A stretch of DNA of 17,611 bases from Abditibacteriaceae bacterium. GTDB taxonomy: Bacteria; Armatimonadota; Abditibacteriia; Abditibacteriales; Abditibacteriaceae. Positions 1-6,000 of this stretch are shown piece by piece. Made by a program: the position numbers. The stretch is from assembly GCA_031425655.1 (NCBI GenBank), contig JANPJS010000237.1, positions 1 to 17,611 of the forward strand, given 5' to 3'. Position 1 is the first letter of the stretch. Each line of letters starts with the position of its first letter.

Positions 1-3000
1 CTCATTAATAGTTTCATAGTTTTTTCCTTACCATCTTCCTTCTGATTGCAGTCTTCGAACGATATTGAGTAAATCCTTGCAGTCTCGGGAGCTGTTTTGT
101 GCGTAGTTGCCCTTGAAATCTTTTTTAACGTAGAGTTGAAAGTAGTCGCCATTGCGAACTATTTGCGACATTTTTCCAGGTTGAATTTGCTCTAAAACGA
201 GTCTGGACACATTATAGGATCCATTGCTGGCAACGAGGCTTGCCATGATGAAATGAAGCAACTTGCCTTCCATCTGTGAGCGGGCGTAAAAATTAAGGGC
301 ACCCGTTTTTGGATTAATCTGCGAAAATCCGTGTATGAAATCCGTGTAGGCGCAGCCTCCGTGTTCCATTAAAAATTCAGGCCCTTCAAGTAACTATGAA
401 CCTCACTGAGCCGGGGTCGCAGTCTGCATTCGATAAACCTGAAAACCGGCCCGCGCCAGTGAAGCCGGAATCTCGCGCATCATGGCGCGGTTGAAATCGC
501 GCGTGCCGTCGCCTAATTGCTCCCACGGCACCAGATTCGGATTGGTTTTGCGATTGGCATCGCGCGGCCCGCAACGCCAGCCCAACGCCTGACGCTCGGC
601 CATCCAGCGTTCGTGTTCCATGCGCGCCATCAGTTCGACTTCGTCGGGCGTAAAGCGAAACCCATGAGCGTCCCAATCGGTTAAAGGCGCGATGTCGCAA
701 CCGATGGCCTGCAATTTTTCGCTGATATCAAGCGCCTGCGCCCGATTGGATTCGCGCGTTTCTTCGGGCACGGCGTCCCACGGGGCTAACAGCGGGTTTT
801 GCTCGCGCGTCACGCCGGCGGCTTGCTGATCTTCAATATATTTGTCGTGCAGCGCCCGCGCCAGCATTTCCGGGATGCCGCCCAGCACCAAATCGGGCTG
901 ACAGGCGCGCTCCAACAATCCCACCGCGTGCAGCGATTGAAAGCGCGGCTGCGCTTCGCCCACGCGCCGCAGCAAGGCCGATAATCCGGCTTCCTGCGTC
1001 ATAGCGACGACAATCGGCACCGTGGTGTGGCGCAAATGCCGGTGCAGAATCAGCGCAGCCGAAAGCGCGAGGGAGTCGTCGGGCAGACAAACGTAAACGT
1101 GCGACACGTCGCAGTGTCCGTTTTCATCGAACAAAAACGCGGCGCGCTGAAAATCCGGCTCGTCGCATTTCATTTCCAGTGAGCGCAAGTCGCAGATTTT
1201 TTCGAGTTCAGGATGGCGCAAGTGCAGCATCTCGCGCACGCAATGCGTGTCGCTGTCTACCAAAGTCAAGCGTAATTTCGGCAGGCTGCTGATGTCGGCA
1301 TTCGGCGCCGCAGCGAACAAAATTTCGCGCCACGCGCGGGCCATATGCACGAGTAGGCTTTGCGCCAATCGCCCGCCGCCGACAATCAGCAAATGCGGCG
1401 TGCGTTCGGTCATGCCCTCGAACGGCGGATGCTCGTCCAACAACGCCCGCGCCGAGCTATCCACGACGTTGAAAAATTGCAAACGAAACGAGCCATGCTG
1501 CGCCATTTCCCATTCGCGCATCAGATACCACAAATCCGGGTTGACGATGTGCGCGCTGCACACTAACACGCCGTTGGTGCGATGTTCGGACAATTCGCGG
1601 GCGTGGGCGGCGATTTCAGCATTAACGCCGTCGTCGCCGCACAGCACGATGAGATGGCGCGCATCGCCGAGGCGCGCTTGTCGCATCAAGGCCGGTTCGC
1701 GCGCGTCGCCCCACAGCACAACAGCGCCCAACTCGCGCGCGGTGCCGGCGAAATCGTTGGATTCGCTTTCTTCAATAATCGCCACATCGCGGCCCTGTGT
1801 GCGAAAGGCTTTGAGCAGCAAAAGCCCTTTTTCGCCCAATCCGCAAATAATAACGTGGTCTTTGAAGCCGCGCAAACGCATCCGCTGCCAGCCATCGCCG
1901 CGAATAAAATAAGCCGCAATCGCCGCCGTGAAAACGCCCAACGTGCCGATGCCGGCGAACATCAGGAACATCGCAATCAAGCGCCCGCCGATGGTTTTCG
2001 GAAAAATATCGCCGTAGCCGATGGTCGTAACCGTCACCATCGCCCACCAAAAACTATCCCAGAGCGAAAGTTCAGGATTGCCCGGCTTTTCAAAGTAAAA
2101 GAAGCCCACCGCGCCCGCCAGCGCGACAGCCAGCAAGATGCCGCAGATGCCAAAAAGAATGGAGTTTTTGCCGGAGTCGCCCATGGGTGAAGAAGCCAGA
2201 AGTCAGAAAACAGAAGTTTGAAGAATTCAACTATTCTGATTTCTAACTTCTGACTTCTGACTTCTTCGTCTTATTCGTCCAACATCTTAATTGCCTGGCG
2301 CAAGCTGCGGTGCATTCGGTTGAACGAGCCGGAAAGCGTGGCAATTTCATCGTTGCCGCGCACTGGCAAGTCTTCGACTTCTAAGTTGCCTTTGCTGATT
2401 TCGTCCGCGATATGCGAAAGTCTGGTGACAGGCTGCACCACAATCACGCGCAGCATGACGTTGAGAATCACGAGCGTGAGGATGAGCACAGCGGCTAAAG
2501 CGCCTAACATCAGGCCCGAAATGCGGCGGGCCATGCGTTGCGGGAGCGTCATCGGAACGGACACGACCTGCGCCGCGACAACTTCATTTAACTTCCAGCC
2601 GAAGCCGCCTTTGCCATATTCCCGAATCTGCGAGGCGGGCGCCATCGCGGGTGTGGTGTGGCATTGCAGGCACGATTTGTCCTTAATGCGAATGGGGCGC
2701 GCTAAATACAAATACGGCCCGCGCGGTGTGGCGCGTGTGCCGACGATTTCTTTGAGTGTTGAGTCTTTGCGAAAGCGGTTGAGCAGCGGCTCTTCCCATT
2801 TCGTGGCGATGTGTTTACGGTTGGTCGGGTTGAGCGAGGCTTCCTTGTAAAAGTAATCGGGATAGCCTTCGCGCAAATACTCAAACGTCCGCGTTGCGGA
2901 AAACGCCGGCACTGTTTCGGCCACGAATTTCCCATTGCGCTCAAAGGGCAGTTGGGGGCGAATACGCGTGTTGGTGTATTTCCGCACCGCGAGGGCGCTC

Positions 3001-6000
3001 TGCATCATCAGGCGTGCATCGCTTAAAACGTGTTCCCTGGCCTGTCGCTGTAAGAGCGCATTGAATACCCATCCCGCGAGCAGCAGCCCCGCGAGCGAAA
3101 CAACGATAAAAATAAGATTAAATTTCGGCACCAGCCGAAGCGAGAGGAAGTTCATAAGCAAGGTGTTACTTCAATAATTGGCGGCCTTTCAAAAAAGCCT
3201 GCTTTTCTTTTGGTGAAGTGAGATTCTCGGACAGCGATTGGTAAAGCTCGTCTAAATTCGCGGCCTGTTTGCTGGCGCGCTTGACCAGCACGCGCGCCAG
3301 TGGCCCCATATGTTCGGCCAGTTGGCGCTCGATTGTGTGCAAAACATTGTCGTCCCACACGGGCTGCGCGATCTCAATCGGCGCGGCGATTTCCGGTGCT
3401 GTCACGGGCGTTCCCTGCGGCGCGATATGCTGTGTCGCTTCTAAAAAGCGTTGGCGCTCGGCGTCTTGCAGCACAAATTGGCTGACTTCACGGCACAACT
3501 CGCTCAAGTTCTTAACTTTGAGCGCGGTTTGATGCACCAACACGCGCGCCATTGGCCCGATGACAACCGCCAACTCGCGCTCGACTTGGCGCAGGTCGTC
3601 GGGATTCCACTGCGTTGCCGCTTGCGTCACCTCCAACTCGGCGTCCTCGGTTTCTTCGGACACCTCGATCATTTCGAGGGCTTCATGGCGACCAGTCGCC
3701 TGCAAAAGCGCCTGAATGGTGTGCGCCAGCCTTTCCAAATGCGCTTCCATCGGCGGTGTGAGCGCGTCCAGCCAGTGCGGCGTGCCGATGAAATAGCGCA
3801 TATGCTTCGAGAGAGACACGTCTTCGAGGCGAAACGGCACAATCGGCAAGCCTTCGCTGACGGCATTCTGCACTTCGCGCTTCACTTGCTGCGAATCGTT
3901 GGAAGCGGCAGATAAAAGCAGCACGAGGACACGCGCGCTGGTGAGCGCATCCATGATTTCGTCCGTCCAGTCGTTGCCGGGCGTCACGTCGCGCGGCGCG
4001 ATCCAGCAGCGAATGCCGCGCGCCTCAAGTGTTGCGCAAACCGCATCCGATGTTAATTTATCTTTTGAAGAATAGCTGATGAAAACGTCGTGCGGCATGG
4101 TAGCGTGATTCCAATCAACCGGAGCCGGTTTCGCTCTTCTCGATACGATAACCCAAAGCCAAAATCACTTTGATGACTTGTCGCGCGATGATGCGGTCGT
4201 AGTCTTTTTCGATTTCGGACAACTCCTCATAAACGACCAAACACGGATGTTTTTTGCAGTCGTCGTCACGCTGCGGCCCATAAGTCCAGCCTTCGGACAA
4301 ACGCTGCTGCGCCCACACATCGTGCGTGTTACGCGATAGAAATTCCAACAAGGCCGCTAACTCTGGGTCGAGTTCAATATGAGAAGTATCAATCGGCGCC
4401 GGTGTGTAGTCCAAGTGAATTTCCTCAACGCGAATAGTTCATTAAAAGGATAGTTCATCACACCGGCCAGCAAAAGCGCCGGCACAGCGTTTCAACCGCC
4501 CCGCTCGTGCGTTGCCATATTATCGAATCGTTCCAGAGCCGATTGCATCGCTTCGGGCCGAACACTTAAATCGCCGGAAAACGGAAAATTCATCGCGCTG
4601 ATGATGAACAAAACCAGAGCAATCGTCGCGGCTAAAATAGCCGTCATCGCCGCTTGATTCTTGAATTTTTCCAACCCGAAGAAATAAGTGAAAAGCATCG
4701 TTGCAATGCCGCCCGCGATAAGCACCAACCACATCGGGCCGGGCACACCGCTGCGCCCGGCCAGCAGTCGCAAGCGCCGATTATCGCTGACCTCGGTCAG
4801 GCGCGAGAGACATTGGTCGTAAAGCACGCTTTCGCGGGCGCCCTTCGGCTGTAAATGCGTAAAGCCCGACCACAGGCGATCAAGATGCAGCGACGACTGG
4901 TCATCCAACTTGCCGCGCGCCATCGCCGGCCATTCTTTTTCGATGACGCCCTCTGCGTAAACGCGAATGTCTTTACGCAGACGCGCCGCTGTGGGCGCAG
5001 CAAATCCGGGCGCCATGCGATAAACGTCTAACAGCGCATTCGATTCGCGCTCAGCGACGACTTTGGCTTCTTCAAACTGTTCCCAGACTATCAAAACCGC
5101 GAAGGCCAACAGCACCGCGTAAATCACGCCGACGATAGCCAAAATAAACCCCGCCACGTCATGATGCTCGCGCAACGTGGCGGGCGACACCACGCGGCGC
5201 GCGATCCATAAACCGCCGACGGATAGCCCAACCGCGCCGCCAACCATTAGCGTGCCCAATAGCCACAGTCCCATAATTTCTCTTGAAACACAAAGGCACA
5301 AAGAATCTCTCTTTGTGCCTTTGTGTCGGGTGCCCTCTGGGCGGATGGTTAATTGCTTTACACCGGCGCGATACGAACTTTCACTTTCATGTCGGTGTTA
5401 ACGTGGTGCATCCGCACGCCACCGGCGCGTTTGCGCTCCAACATCTGCTGATGGCCGAGCGCCGCGGCATCCGGCAGTTTCACCGTGAGGCCTTCGGCGT
5501 CGAAATCGGTGTGCGGCTGGCCGTTAATGGTAACCGATTCGATTTTGATGCTGCCCGGCGGCAAAATATCGGGCGATACGCGCAAAATGTTGTCCTTGAA
5601 ACCGCCCGCTTTCGGCTTGAAATAAAAGTCCATCGGCTGCTTGGTGATGAGCAGATTGGTGTAAACCGCCGCTAAATAGCACAACTCAATCGAGTGATAA
5701 GCGCCCATCGAGTGGCTGCCCTTATCGCGCTCCGAACCGAGCAAATACGGCAGGCCGTTCGCCAAGACGTTGAAATAAACCGCGCCTGAATCAGTGTCCA
5801 AGAACCACGCATTGTAAAACGCCGACGATTCGCGCGCCAGTTTCAGGTATTCGTCTTTCTTCGTGCAGCCATTGAGAATGAGATAGGCCAAAATGCCCTG
5901 CTCTTGCTGCCACCACGCTTTGCGGTCGTGGAACGCCAAGCGATGAAATTCTTCGCCCTCGGCTTTTTGGCGTTCCATCACGTCATACCAGCCGCCGCGC

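Follow-up and report, generated by a model that had tools for sequence, protein, structure and literature searches.

According to passages of two 2026 preprints (PMC13232231; 10.64898/2026.06.04.730250), 2'/3'cADPR is bound or cleaved by RyR domains of phages with the help of four residues, which in RyDEP are H75, W78, H100 and D117. The first of these assayed eight homologues of RyDEP, and six bound the signals without cleaving them (passages of PMC13232231). Repeat12 of animal ryanodine receptors also binds ATP/ADP (passages of PMC12627627 and 10.64898/2026.06.04.730250). The available text of a Thoeris survey describes a type X, in which a TIR protein works with the ion-channel effector ThsK through an unknown signal, and TIR genes lying beside SLATT-domain genes; defence was verified for several of the new types (10.64898/2025.12.03.692087). 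A Cache_haem-HAMP (CHH) receptor and its partner, a Ser/Thr kinase, are known from Pseudomonas azotoformans through cryo-EM and binding data. The studied CHH relative binds NO, and the authors conclude that the receptor probably alters how accessible it is to the kinase as a substrate, and not the activity of the kinase (available text of 10.64898/2026.05.25.727664).

The window is a stretch of 17,611 nucleotides from an Abditibacteriaceae bacterium. The host is a soil or sediment bacterium. The window contains a cassette of five co-directional ORFs, all on the minus strand and spanning 403-5301 (Table 1). In coordinate order the intergenic gaps are 86, 4, 16 and 77 bp. ORF calling and Pfam agree with an earlier note on this DNA, which described five same-strand genes with this domain content; together with locus comparison, they also bear out its statement that RyR domains are encoded by the host beside a TIR gene. 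The GC content of the cassette genes is 51-60%, and that of the genome is 56.7%. Synteny is kept in six relatives from three genera. Metabolic genes adjoin the cassette, and epimerase/GlgX genes are among the locus neighbours. Pfam identified no mobile-element or known defence genes in the window. The only PADLOC matches are weak ones to the TIR domain; the four remaining proteins have none. The tail-bearing TIR is found in 7 of 25 Abditibacteriaceae genomes searched, including this one. The genes flanking the cassette in relatives include one for caspase-PEGA-TPR and one for TIR-NB-ARC.

Table 1. Features of the cassette (positions in the window; aa, residues of the encoded protein).
Feature	Position	Strand	Size and evidence
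RyR-tailed MthK-like K+ channel	403..2184	-	593 aa; Pfam, motifs, KcsA/MthK alignment
Tandem RyR (Repeat12-like) domain of channel	424..870	-	Local HMM, profile search of genomes
Channel RyR repeat 2	424-678 (aa 503-587)	-	Pocket H-W-N-N; 112 bits, local HMM
Channel RyR repeat 1	685-870 (aa 439-500)	-	Pocket H-Y-N-N; 30 bits, local HMM
Output-less Cache_haem-HAMP receptor	2271..3161	-	296 aa; Pfam, topology, motif
TIR enzyme with docking tail	3166..4098	-	310 aa; Pfam, PF26309, AF2, Foldseek
Free single-repeat RyR protein	4115..4414	-	99 aa; Pfam 116 bits, PDB matches
Bestrophin-like membrane protein (PF14023)	4492..5301	-	269 aa; Pfam, hydrophobic segments

The free RyR protein consists almost entirely of one domain (aa 3-93), which matches positions 1-91 of the 91-position profile. 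Its PDB sequence matches include RyR2 (E 5.1e-67) and 3NRT (E 6.2e-30), in line with the values reported before (1e-66 and 1.6e-29). The RyDEP tetrad had also been claimed for this protein. Its residues and spacing stand, but the numbering was one too low, and the residues are H31, W34, H56 and D73; their spacing of 3/22/17 is that of RyDEP. HWHD is present in 30 of the 34 free RyR proteins compared.

The K+ channel has two TM helices, a TIGYG selectivity filter (aa 54-58) and a GLGEKG motif at aa 115 in the RCK/TrkA_N domain. Pfam identifies Ion_trans_2 (aa 17-94, 68.3 bits), TrkA_N (111-203, 63 bits) and RyR (59.4 bits over two stretches, the best being 516-583). A PDB sequence search aligns the pore and RCK parts with KcsA and MthK; GsuK is not among the best 60 matches. 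GsuK is a related channel which is gated by NAD+, ADP and Ca2+. The two RyR repeats score 21.9 and 44.3 bits in the genome profile search. By BLASTP the free RyR matches the channel over 76 residues with the 29% identity (E 4e-13) reported before; H and W are retained, H is replaced by N and D is replaced by N. Within the channel RyR set compared, the last repeat carries HWNN in 18/33 and HWHD in 8/33, and the first carries HYNN in 15/25. The split seen by the earlier note, in which the free copy keeps the tetrad and the channel copy has lost its third and fourth residues, is conserved across families. The H-W-N-N and H-Y-N-N pockets suit a binder rather than a hydrolase. As judged from these residues, the division suggests that the free RyR is an enzyme or sponge and the channel RyR a receptor. 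HWHD is not proof of an enzyme, because most RyDEP homologues tested only bound the signals. Four genomes of one family (L049, L050, L051, L056) have the free RyR, receptor and TIR and no RyR-tailed effector genome-wide; the free RyR therefore cannot be a mere buffer for the channel.

The genetic tie between RyR and TIR, reported previously, is well above chance and extends across phyla by locus counts. In 401 genomes of the same phylum, RyR occurs in 50 and TIR_2 in 172 (426 matches). A TIR gene lies within 5 kb of RyR in 25 of 58 loci; a single locus has its nearest TIR 5-10 kb away. By type, a TIR is this close to 19/30 free RyRs, 12/23 channel RyRs and 5/20 other fusions, and the linked loci span 11 of 18 families. 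RyR-bearing genomes with a TIR beside the RyR gene number 25/50 in the phylum and 8/15 in a Bacillota sample (401 genomes, 15 with RyR). Seventeen Bacillota RyR loci were fetched, and nine contain a TIR. One Bacillota protein of 331 aa is a TIR-RyR-RyR fusion (L125), and another Bacillota locus (L122) encodes a 408-aa TIR, an RyR-tailed channel and SLOG-SLATT. TIR directly adjoins the RyR-tailed channel in L090, L094, L100, L105 and L108, drawn from Anaerolineales, Actinomycetota, Nitrosomonas, Verrucomicrobiota and Armatimonadetes records. Elsewhere, the TIR proteins that accompany RyR genes have sensor parts of the WD40, TPR or NB-ARC kind. In 11 of the 23 channel-RyR loci there is no TIR within 5 kb of the RyR domain in the fetched sequence; five of these (L061, L062, L063, L067, L076) have 3-10 kb on both sides. 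One of the five, L062, has an ADP-ribosylglycohydrolase gene about 1.4 kb away.

The TIR domain covers aa 1-137 of its protein (TIR_2 at 5-124, 79.3 bits). The AF2 model has a long helix at 109-149, and Foldseek gives TIR matches. E75, named previously as the catalytic Glu, falls opposite the Glu of 6WT6 in an alignment (E 1.2e-5) and is invariant in all 13 aligned relatives. The two tail repeats noted earlier as DUF8082, labelled PF26309.1, are supported by the AF2 model, which has four-helix modules at 166-222 and 250-308, each preceded by a linker, and by the motif E..LA..GP[ML]ARVLV, present once in each. PF26309 occurs on kinases, cyclases and TIRs.

The receptor is composed of TM1, a periplasmic Tll0287-like/Cache_haem domain (Tll0287-like 38-203, 134 bits), TM2 and HAMP (241-289), at which the protein ends without an output domain. 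It contains CLQCH at aa 164-168; C164, C167 and H168 are invariant in 12/12 relatives. It is 43-52% identical to 80 metagenome relatives. A PF26309-type gene lies within 1.5 kb in 48 of these, or in 34/39 where the receptor locus has at least 1.5 kb on both sides. Pfam scans of 42 such partners found 36 Pkinase (Ser/Thr) proteins, 3 cyclases, 3 proteins without a family and no TIR. The receptor gene adjoins every one of the 12 tail-bearing TIR loci apart from L027, where the contig ends, and is beside no tail-less TIR in the RyR loci of the 401 same-phylum genomes. By analogy, the receptor and TIR tail are the docking pair known from the NO receptor and kinase, with TIR replacing the kinase. 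Complex prediction of two HAMP copies with the TIR tail lends weak support, with a score of 0.39 against 0.00 for the best control; at least 94% of contacts are shared between runs, and the partner has a pLDDT of 66 or more. In the calibration, 116 of 157 solved complexes reached the mark, as did 2 of 215 mismatched pairs; at scores up to 0.60, only 18 of the 157 and both passing mismatches did so. These counts hold only roughly for the custom alignments used here.

The earlier view of the five genes as one unit does not hold. The bestrophin-like gene (22-252, 219.7 bits; four hydrophobic segments) tracks the locus and not RyR or TIR. It adjoins the cassette only in the window, L028, L029 and L030, while L132 and L133 have it next to a TIR paralog; no other RyR locus scanned contains it, which covers all of those outside Abditibacteriaceae. 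It is a locus neighbour whose membership in the system is doubtful. Relatives have a sixth gene, encoding a SLOG-SLATT protein of about 670 aa, which comes after the channel in 11/23 channel loci; records from Bacillota, Nitrosomonas and Verrucomicrobiia have it too. The family matches SLATT_3 (16/50), SLATT_1 (12/50), DUF4231 (17/50) and YAcAr SLOG (7/50). For the AF2 model (pLDDT 87), Foldseek ranks YpsA first (2NX2, E 4e-5), ahead of DprA, ShosA and LOG; 7UXS (ThsA) is also among the matches. SLOG is the known receptor of 3'cADPR in ThsA. In this genome the SLOG-SLATT gene is at the start of another contig, and no end overlap joins that contig to the cassette contig.

The cassette is best read as ligand-triggered TIR second-messenger signalling to membrane effectors. 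It would form a native chromosomal chain from sensor to messenger to effector. The 296-aa protein would be a CHH receptor that senses through c-type haem in the periplasm, has its HAMP in the cytoplasm and lacks an output domain. TIR would dock on this HAMP through its two C-terminal four-helix modules, as the Ser/Thr kinase does in related receptors, and would be switched on when the haem binds its ligand (NO in the studied relative). The active enzyme would convert NAD+ to an ADP-ribose-derived messenger of the cADPR type. Binding of this messenger by the tandem RyR on the channel gating ring would alter K+ flux in one direction or the other, and the SLOG of the SLATT membrane protein probably binds it too. 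The free RyR would hydrolyse or buffer the messenger, setting a threshold and ending the response. The core of this scheme, a TIR product read by RyR domains, is likely; the whole chain with its haem-ligand trigger falls a little short of an even chance. The account of the receptor as a substrate in the CHH preprint is a point against the proposed switching of the docked TIR.

The same core mechanism could serve a Thoeris-like anti-phage system, in which membrane effectors read the TIR signal through RyR and SLOG. Infection or envelope damage would then be the trigger, K+ loss and SLATT pores would bring about abortive infection, and the free RyR would guard against self-activation. Type X and the TIR-SLATT operons of the Thoeris survey fit this, as do L122, the WD40/TPR/NB-ARC parts on TIR partners elsewhere, the caspase-PEGA-TPR and TIR-NB-ARC genes in relatives and the patchy occurrence of the cassette within the family. 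However, the input module belongs to a NO-binding family of environmental receptors which drive kinases or cyclases in 39 of the 42 partners scanned, and the native GC, the synteny beside metabolic genes, the PADLOC result and the gene content of the window also count against it. A HAMP protein as the documented docking partner of the TIR tail modules shifts the odds towards ordinary signalling. We consider the Thoeris-like reading rather unlikely; the signalling of the best reading may itself serve either immunity or physiology.

Since animal Repeat12 binds ATP/ADP, the RyR pocket may read ordinary adenine nucleotides. RyR domains would then be sensors of energy state through adenine nucleotides or NAD metabolites and TIR a plain NADase; the link would be indirect, in that the channel RCK and RyR would respond to falling NAD+ or rising ADPR and no cyclic messenger would be dedicated to the task. 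The RCK domain of the channel is already a Rossmann domain of the NAD type, the gating of GsuK counts in the same direction, and channel-RyR genes without a nearby TIR exist, one of them near an ADP-ribosylglycohydrolase gene. This is nevertheless improbable: the tight adjacency, the L125 fusion and the co-occurrence with SLOG point to a direct TIR-RyR relation, and the glycosidase dyad kept by the free RyR would be useless on linear nucleotides. That the genes are neighbours of no shared function, left by an accident of lineage, is highly improbable. The bestrophin-like and epimerase/GlgX genes do look like mere neighbours, and the promoter/terminator scan neither shows nor excludes a single transcript. 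However, the receptor, TIR and free RyR genes are joined by the two shortest gaps, and recurrence of the same combinations in unrelated phyla, in varying order, brings the chance explanation close to refuted.

Several known systems resemble parts of the cassette. The CHH receptor/kinase pair shares the CxxCH haem Cache, TM and HAMP without output, and its partner is likewise encoded by the adjacent gene and built with a linker and two short four-helix bundles that have a conserved motif of about 15 residues. The catalytic domain of the partner is here TIR and not a PknB-like kinase, so that HAMP phosphorylation cannot be the read-out; the available text of the CHH preprint (10.64898/2026.05.25.727664) does not contain the term TIR. 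Thoeris systems (type X and TIR-SLATT operons) likewise have a TIR with a catalytic Glu beside membrane effectors, an ion channel and a SLATT protein, which carry a small-molecule sensor. They differ in that the receptor domain on the channel here is RyR (PF02026), TIR would be docked to a haem receptor, the set includes a free RyR gene, and the locus is native rather than a defence island. The term RyR does not occur in the main text of the Thoeris preprint, as far as available (10.64898/2025.12.03.692087). RCK channels of the MthK/GsuK type share the TIGYG pore followed by a TrkA_N RCK domain; the C-terminal tandem RyR is additional here.

The cassette may be the bacterial counterpart of an animal pathway, that of cyclic ADP-ribose and the ryanodine receptor. 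The two share the domain family (RyR2, E 5e-67), both have a tandem repeat on an ion channel, and both may read an NAD-derived cyclic nucleotide; the likeness shown is one of domains. To our knowledge, it is itself unproven that cADPR gates animal RyR via Repeat12. The animal protein is a giant Ca2+ release channel, in contrast to the 2-TM RCK K+ channel of the cassette. Phage RyDEP and the RyR Tad sponge share with the free RyR a single repeat and the four ligand/catalytic residues at identical spacing, and the free RyR is expected to be a homodimer like RyDEP. The channel copy differs from RyDEP in being a tandem, like the pseudo-dimer of animal Repeat12, with Asn at positions three and four. 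The free RyR, whose activity is putative, is host-encoded in an operon with TIR, and it would thus serve to control a signal of its own cell, not to escape from one.

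In the window, a row of five ORFs is read co-directionally from the minus strand, with intergenic gaps of 86, 4, 16 and 77 bp.

Genes of the cassette and its bestrophin-like neighbour in the window
Feature	Position	Strand	Evidence
K+ channel, 593 aa	403-2184	minus	Pfam Ion_trans_2 aa 17-94, TrkA_N 111-203, RyR 59.4 bits
Receptor, 296 aa	2271-3161	minus	Pfam Tll0287-like and HAMP; sequence ends after HAMP
TIR protein, 310 aa	3166-4098	minus	Pfam TIR_2
Free RyR protein, 99 aa	4115-4414	minus	One complete RyR repeat, 116 bits
Bestrophin-like protein	4492-5301	minus	PF14023

The cassette genes have a GC content of 51-60%, compared with 56.7% for the genome. 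The locus is syntenic across three genera and has metabolic genes alongside; by Pfam, the remaining genes of the window are metabolic. The window is one entire contig among the 327 of the assembly. A whole-genome profile search returned RyR matches of 115.2, 44.3 and 21.9 bits, the last of which is under the 27.4-bit cut-off, and found no RyR domain in the assembly beyond those of the window. The assembly has one TIR besides that of the cassette: a 537-aa TIR and SLOG-cluster-2 protein encoded on another contig (L114:136-1749). Scans of positions 1-5800 gave one promoter-like site (2.6 expected) and 16 terminator-like sites (10.3 expected, sd 2.6).

An epimerase-like 642-aa (alpha/alpha)6 protein is encoded at 5358-7286. 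The gene was found in only 8 of 27 family genomes; all eight carriers also have cassette genes, and it is always found at the cassette locus. This co-occurrence may reflect shared descent or a functional tie. The 400 bp at the contig end (1-400) have a GC content of 42% (genome, 56.7%) and include a 113-aa minus-strand ORF (28-369), which has no match in Pfam, NCBIfam or PADLOC and no counterpart among the cassettes of relatives. It occupies the position at which relatives carry a gene for a SLOG-SLATT membrane protein; this stretch may therefore be a small insertion, one that also interrupted the assembly.

RyR domains are found in two of the cassette proteins. The free RyR protein matches profile positions 1-91 of 91 at 116 bits (Pfam PF02026, cut-off 27.4 bits); neither it nor the TIR protein has a hydrophobic segment. 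An earlier note on this DNA had reported its similarity to animal ryanodine receptors and to a Bacteroides protein, and comparison with PDB sequences again returns both (RyR2 at 5.1e-67, 3NRT at 6.2e-30). The RyR match of the channel falls in two stretches and exceeds the same curated cut-off. The BLASTP alignment of the two proteins described in that note was reproduced on recomputation: 29% identity (E 4e-13), with H and W kept and Asn at the other two positions.

The channel is of the MthK-like, RCK-gated K+ type. It has a T-x-G-Y-G filter (TIGYG at aa 54), two hydrophobic segments corresponding to the two TM helices, and an RCK part with a GLGEKG Rossmann motif (TrkA_N 63 bits, Pfam); MthK can be aligned with it over aa 16-188. 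Its gene lies two genes from the TIR gene, which makes it, as in Thoeris, an adjacent effector with a candidate ligand-sensing domain. The RyR part would presumably sense the TIR product.

Two phage RyR proteins which act on cADPR signals provide a guide to the pockets. RyDEP, which represents the glycosidases that cleave 2'/3'cADPR to ADPR, has the tetrad H75/W78/H100/D117, the first His and the Asp of which form its catalytic dyad (PMC13232231). RyR Tad binds 3'cADPR through the equivalent residues, mutation of which weakens binding about 100-fold (10.64898/2026.06.04.730250). The free RyR protein carries the tetrad with the RyDEP spacing of 3/22/17, as had been claimed; the residue numbers given with that claim were one too low, and the ORF start gives H31, W34, H56 and D73. 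The channel repeats read HWNN and HYNN and so do not carry the RyDEP-type set. When all RyR segments were aligned to one profile and four duplicate loci were dropped, H-W-H-D was present in 30/34 free RyR proteins. The last channel repeat is H-W-N-N in 18/33 cases and H-W-H-D in 8/33; the first is H-Y-N-N in 15/25. Judged by these residues, the conserved Asn-Asn pocket of the channel fits a receptor that would bind without cleaving, and the conserved full tetrad of the free protein fits either an enzyme or a tight sponge. Six of the eight RyDEP homologues tested bound signals without cleavage (PMC13232231); the free RyR should therefore be called a predicted enzyme with caution.

In two other genomes of the phylum the free RyR gene is broken by TAG codons, two in one (L041, about 9946-10215) and one in the other (L037:8348-8539); decay or recoding could explain the interruptions. 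In another family, four genomes (L049, L050, L051 and L056) have a free RyR, a receptor and a tail-bearing TIR only. An RyR search of these genomes gave no further match, so the role of the free RyR is independent of an RyR-tailed effector there.

The association of RyR with TIR was examined in 401 genomes of the same phylum. RyR was found in 50 of these and TIR_2 in 172 (426 matches). Fifty-eight RyR loci were fetched, the window included and one sub-threshold match left out, and scanned in all six frames with profiles built for this analysis. A TIR domain lies less than 5 kb from the RyR domain in 25/58 loci; in a single locus the closest TIR is 5-10 kb away, though most loci have enough flank. 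The 25 linked loci come from 25 different genomes and from 11 of 18 families. By type, linkage was seen in 19/30 loci with a free RyR, 12/23 with an RyR-tailed channel and 5/20 with other RyR fusions; one free RyR (L058), which was missed by the ORF caller and found by genome search, is outside these type counts. A second sample, drawn from the phylum to which a Bacillota record belongs, also comprised 401 genomes. Here RyR was found in 15 genomes, and a TIR was present in 9/17 fetched RyR loci, covering eight genomes. One Bacillota locus encodes both domains in a single 331-aa protein, TIR followed by two RyR repeats (L125:7792-8784); a SLOG-SLATT gene adjoins it. Among channel relatives in a species collection, a TIR gene directly adjoins the RyR-tailed channel in Anaerolineales, Actinomycetota, Nitrosomonas, Verrucomicrobiota and Armatimonadetes records. 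Given this recurrence in the phylum, in Bacillota and across phyla, the RyR-TIR linkage is of old date, occurs widely and does not depend on gene order.

RyR is also joined to other proteins. These fusions include AAA/STAND-type NTPases of about 950 aa, RelA_SpoT-TPR-SLOG proteins and TPR-S-cyclase proteins, and the TIR proteins beside RyR genes often have WD40, TPR or NB-ARC parts. The pattern is that of a sensor module shuffled among effectors. Two proteins (L065:1180-4320 and L077:7760-10231) are built of RelA_SpoT, TPR, a prokaryotic TRPM-type SLOG and, at the C-terminus, an RyR. In this architecture an alarmone synthetase is subject to two domains of nucleotide-sensor type; a TIR-STAND gene lies about 3 kb from the second protein. 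At five loci (L038:176-2428, L082:2989-5238, L047, L048 and L053) RyR is fused to, or lies beside, TPR-S and adenylate/guanylate cyclase proteins, which suggests cross-talk of the RyR ligand with cyclic-nucleotide signalling. A lone RyR-tailed channel without a nearby TIR has a 700-aa ADP-ribosylglycohydrolase-family gene (L062:3713-5815) at a distance of about 1.4 kb.

The receptor gene follows the TIR gene, which lies 4 bp upstream. The receptor has TM-periplasmic-TM topology and the architecture of CHH proteins (Cache_haem-HAMP receptors without an output domain): a Tll0287-like domain (134 bits), a CxxCH motif, TM and HAMP, with the sequence ending at aa 296. The motif, CLQCH at aa 164, is invariant in 12/12 relatives. 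CHH genes have an adjacent partner, and here it is the TIR protein. TIR_2 scores 79.3 bits and Foldseek returns TIR folds. The catalytic Glu characteristic of Thoeris TIRs is present; the earlier note had aligned E75 with the Glu of TIR-STING 6WT6, and this alignment stands, the residue being invariant in 13/13 relatives.

The tail of the TIR protein is PF26309, which in the protein collection is found on Ser/Thr kinases, class III cyclases and TIRs. The AF2 model consists of the TIR domain, a long helix, a disordered linker, a four-helix module (aa 166-222), a second linker and another four-helix module (aa 250-308). Foldseek with the whole model gave matches to TIR domains only and none to the tail modules. 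Like the kinases and cyclases, the TIR protein has two copies of the motif E..LA..GP[ML]A[RK]VLV. The receptor gene accompanies tail-bearing TIRs in 11/12 loci, the twelfth being cut by a contig end; in the loci scanned, no TIR without the PF26309 tail was accompanied by a receptor gene. From a metagenome scan for receptor relatives, 80 loci were kept, with 43-52% identity over the full length. A PF26309-type gene lies less than 1.5 kb from the receptor relative in 48/80 of these, and in 34/39 of those having at least 1.5 kb on both sides. Among 42 such partners scanned there were 36 protein kinases, three cyclases and three without a family, and no TIR.

The CHH receptor of Pseudomonas azotoformans binds its neighbouring kinase with nanomolar affinity, as determined by binding assays and cryo-EM (10.64898/2026.05.25.727664). 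The kinase C-terminus makes the contact through two short four-helix bundles, each on one HAMP subunit, and NO on the haem alters HAMP phosphorylation (10.64898/2026.05.25.727664). In its predicted structure, the TIR protein has a linker and two four-helix modules laid out as in this kinase tail. The partner in the CHH pair is a PknB-like Ser/Thr kinase, whereas that in the window is a TIR protein; the word 'TIR' is absent from the text of that paper. Complex prediction with two HAMP copies and the TIR tail, run on alignments of our own, scored 0.39 against 0.00 for the best control; runs agree in at least 94% of contacts and partner pLDDT is at least 66. In calibration, the mark was reached by 116/157 solved complexes and 2/215 mismatches; scores of 0.60 or less comprised just 18 of the 157 solved complexes, together with both passing mismatches. 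The prediction thus weakly suggests that HAMP docks the TIR tail.

A candidate sixth gene of the cassette, for a SLOG-SLATT protein of about 670 aa, stands after the channel gene in relatives. It does so in 11/23 channel loci of the phylum sample and, outside it, in records of Bacillota, Nitrosomonas and Verrucomicrobiia; beside the receptor-kinase pairs of the 80 metagenome loci there is none. The family has 6290 representatives at E up to 0.001, and among 50 members there were matches to DUF4231 (17/50), SLATT_3 (16/50), SLATT_1 (12/50) and a SLOG family (7/50). In the AF2 model (pLDDT 87) the best fold match of the N-terminal domain is YpsA, followed by DprA, ShosA and LOG, all of which are SLOG-type folds. 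The SLOG-SLATT gene of the genome itself is on another contig (L113:264-2273), 264 bp from the contig end; after it come a convergent caspase-PEGA-TPR gene (L113:2549-4834), a Ser/Thr kinase and a GAF-cyclase. Two relatives have SLOG-SLATT and then the convergent caspase-PEGA-TPR gene after their channel gene; by comparison with these, the order channel, SLOG-SLATT, convergent caspase gene would apply in the present genome too. The first 260 bp of L113 contain a long inverted repeat. No overlap of ends was found that would join the window's contig to C177, the contig of this genome that begins with SLOG-SLATT, and the ends of the window recur in none of the other contigs. In one sister genome the channel and SLOG-SLATT genes (L026:6598-8356 and L026:4399-6550) are each split in two frames; frameshifts or errors of assembly could account for this.

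The bestrophin-like protein has four hydrophobic segments. Its gene adjoins the cassette in the window's family only, and was found in none of the other RyR loci scanned outside that family. In two sister species it is at the same chromosomal site beside a tail-less TIR paralog, and the RyR cassette is elsewhere. It was rejected as a member of the system and treated as a locus neighbour, as it tracks the locus and not the RyR cassette.

The domain identities, the residue patterns, the gene linkages and the homology of the docking module to an experimentally studied pair are observed; we infer every biochemical step of the sensor-TIR-RyR chain that follows, which is the likeliest course. A haem ligand would bind the periplasmic sensor and switch on the HAMP-docked TIR, which would make an NAD-derived messenger. 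The RyR tandem of the channel and the SLOG domain of the SLATT protein would bind the messenger and change ion flux across the membrane, and the free RyR would remove it.

Such a chain could serve anti-phage defence of the Thoeris kind or ligand-triggered signalling. Thoeris configurations that have been reported include TIR with an ion channel, which is type X, and TIR with SLATT (10.64898/2025.12.03.692087). In favour of physiology, the effector here is a regulated K+ channel, and the input receptor belongs to a family that otherwise drives kinases and cyclases. RyR-TIR loci elsewhere have NLR-like sensors, relatives have a caspase-like gene next door and a TIR-NB-ARC gene nearby, and only some members of the family have the cassette, all of which would suit defence. 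Against this, the cassette has native GC and keeps its synteny across three genera beside metabolic genes. PADLOC gave weak TIR-domain matches and nothing for the other cassette proteins, and the locus lacks the defence-gene enrichment used as a criterion in the Thoeris survey; PADLOC and NCBIfam have no model for the RyR, channel, receptor and bestrophin-like proteins beyond generic domain matches. We lean slightly towards ligand-triggered signalling.

A broader proposal, put forward tentatively and rather doubtful, is that TIR-made NAD-derived messengers act in ordinary bacterial signalling and not in immunity alone. On this view a periplasmic NO/haem-ligand receptor would hold a TIR in the place taken by a kinase in related receptors, the messenger would gate a K+ channel via Repeat12 RyR, and a dedicated RyR hydrolase would be the off-switch, together a complete writer-reader-eraser pathway. 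If true, the animal cADPR-ryanodine-receptor axis would have in this pathway a counterpart among prokaryotes and perhaps its evolutionary source.

As parts, TIR signalling, phage RyR binders, CHH docking and SLOG-SLATT are already known; the window has the receptor-TIR half and the TIR-RyR-channel half together in one cassette. Outside subscription journals, which the search did not cover, no paper was found on host RyR proteins as partners of TIR genes or on an RyR-tailed K+ channel, and the tables of the Thoeris survey might list such operons; nor, with the same coverage of journals, was one found on a TIR carried by a CHH receptor. If the scheme holds, three separate results from 2025-2026 become one pathway: the binding of cADPR signals by phage RyR domains, the existence in Thoeris of ion-channel effectors of unknown signal, and the docking of an output enzyme on its NO-binding receptor. 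The scheme would identify which receptor domain of the host is imitated by phage RyR proteins, supply a K+ channel with a candidate mechanism of ligand gating, and provide a TIR enzyme controlled by an environmental sensor. The long-disputed cADPR/Repeat12 link would become testable with small bacterial proteins.

The Thoeris survey distinguishes 29 types, of which type X consists of ThsB and the ion-channel protein ThsK (10.64898/2025.12.03.692087). By description, the cassette would resemble type X in combining a TIR with an ion channel.
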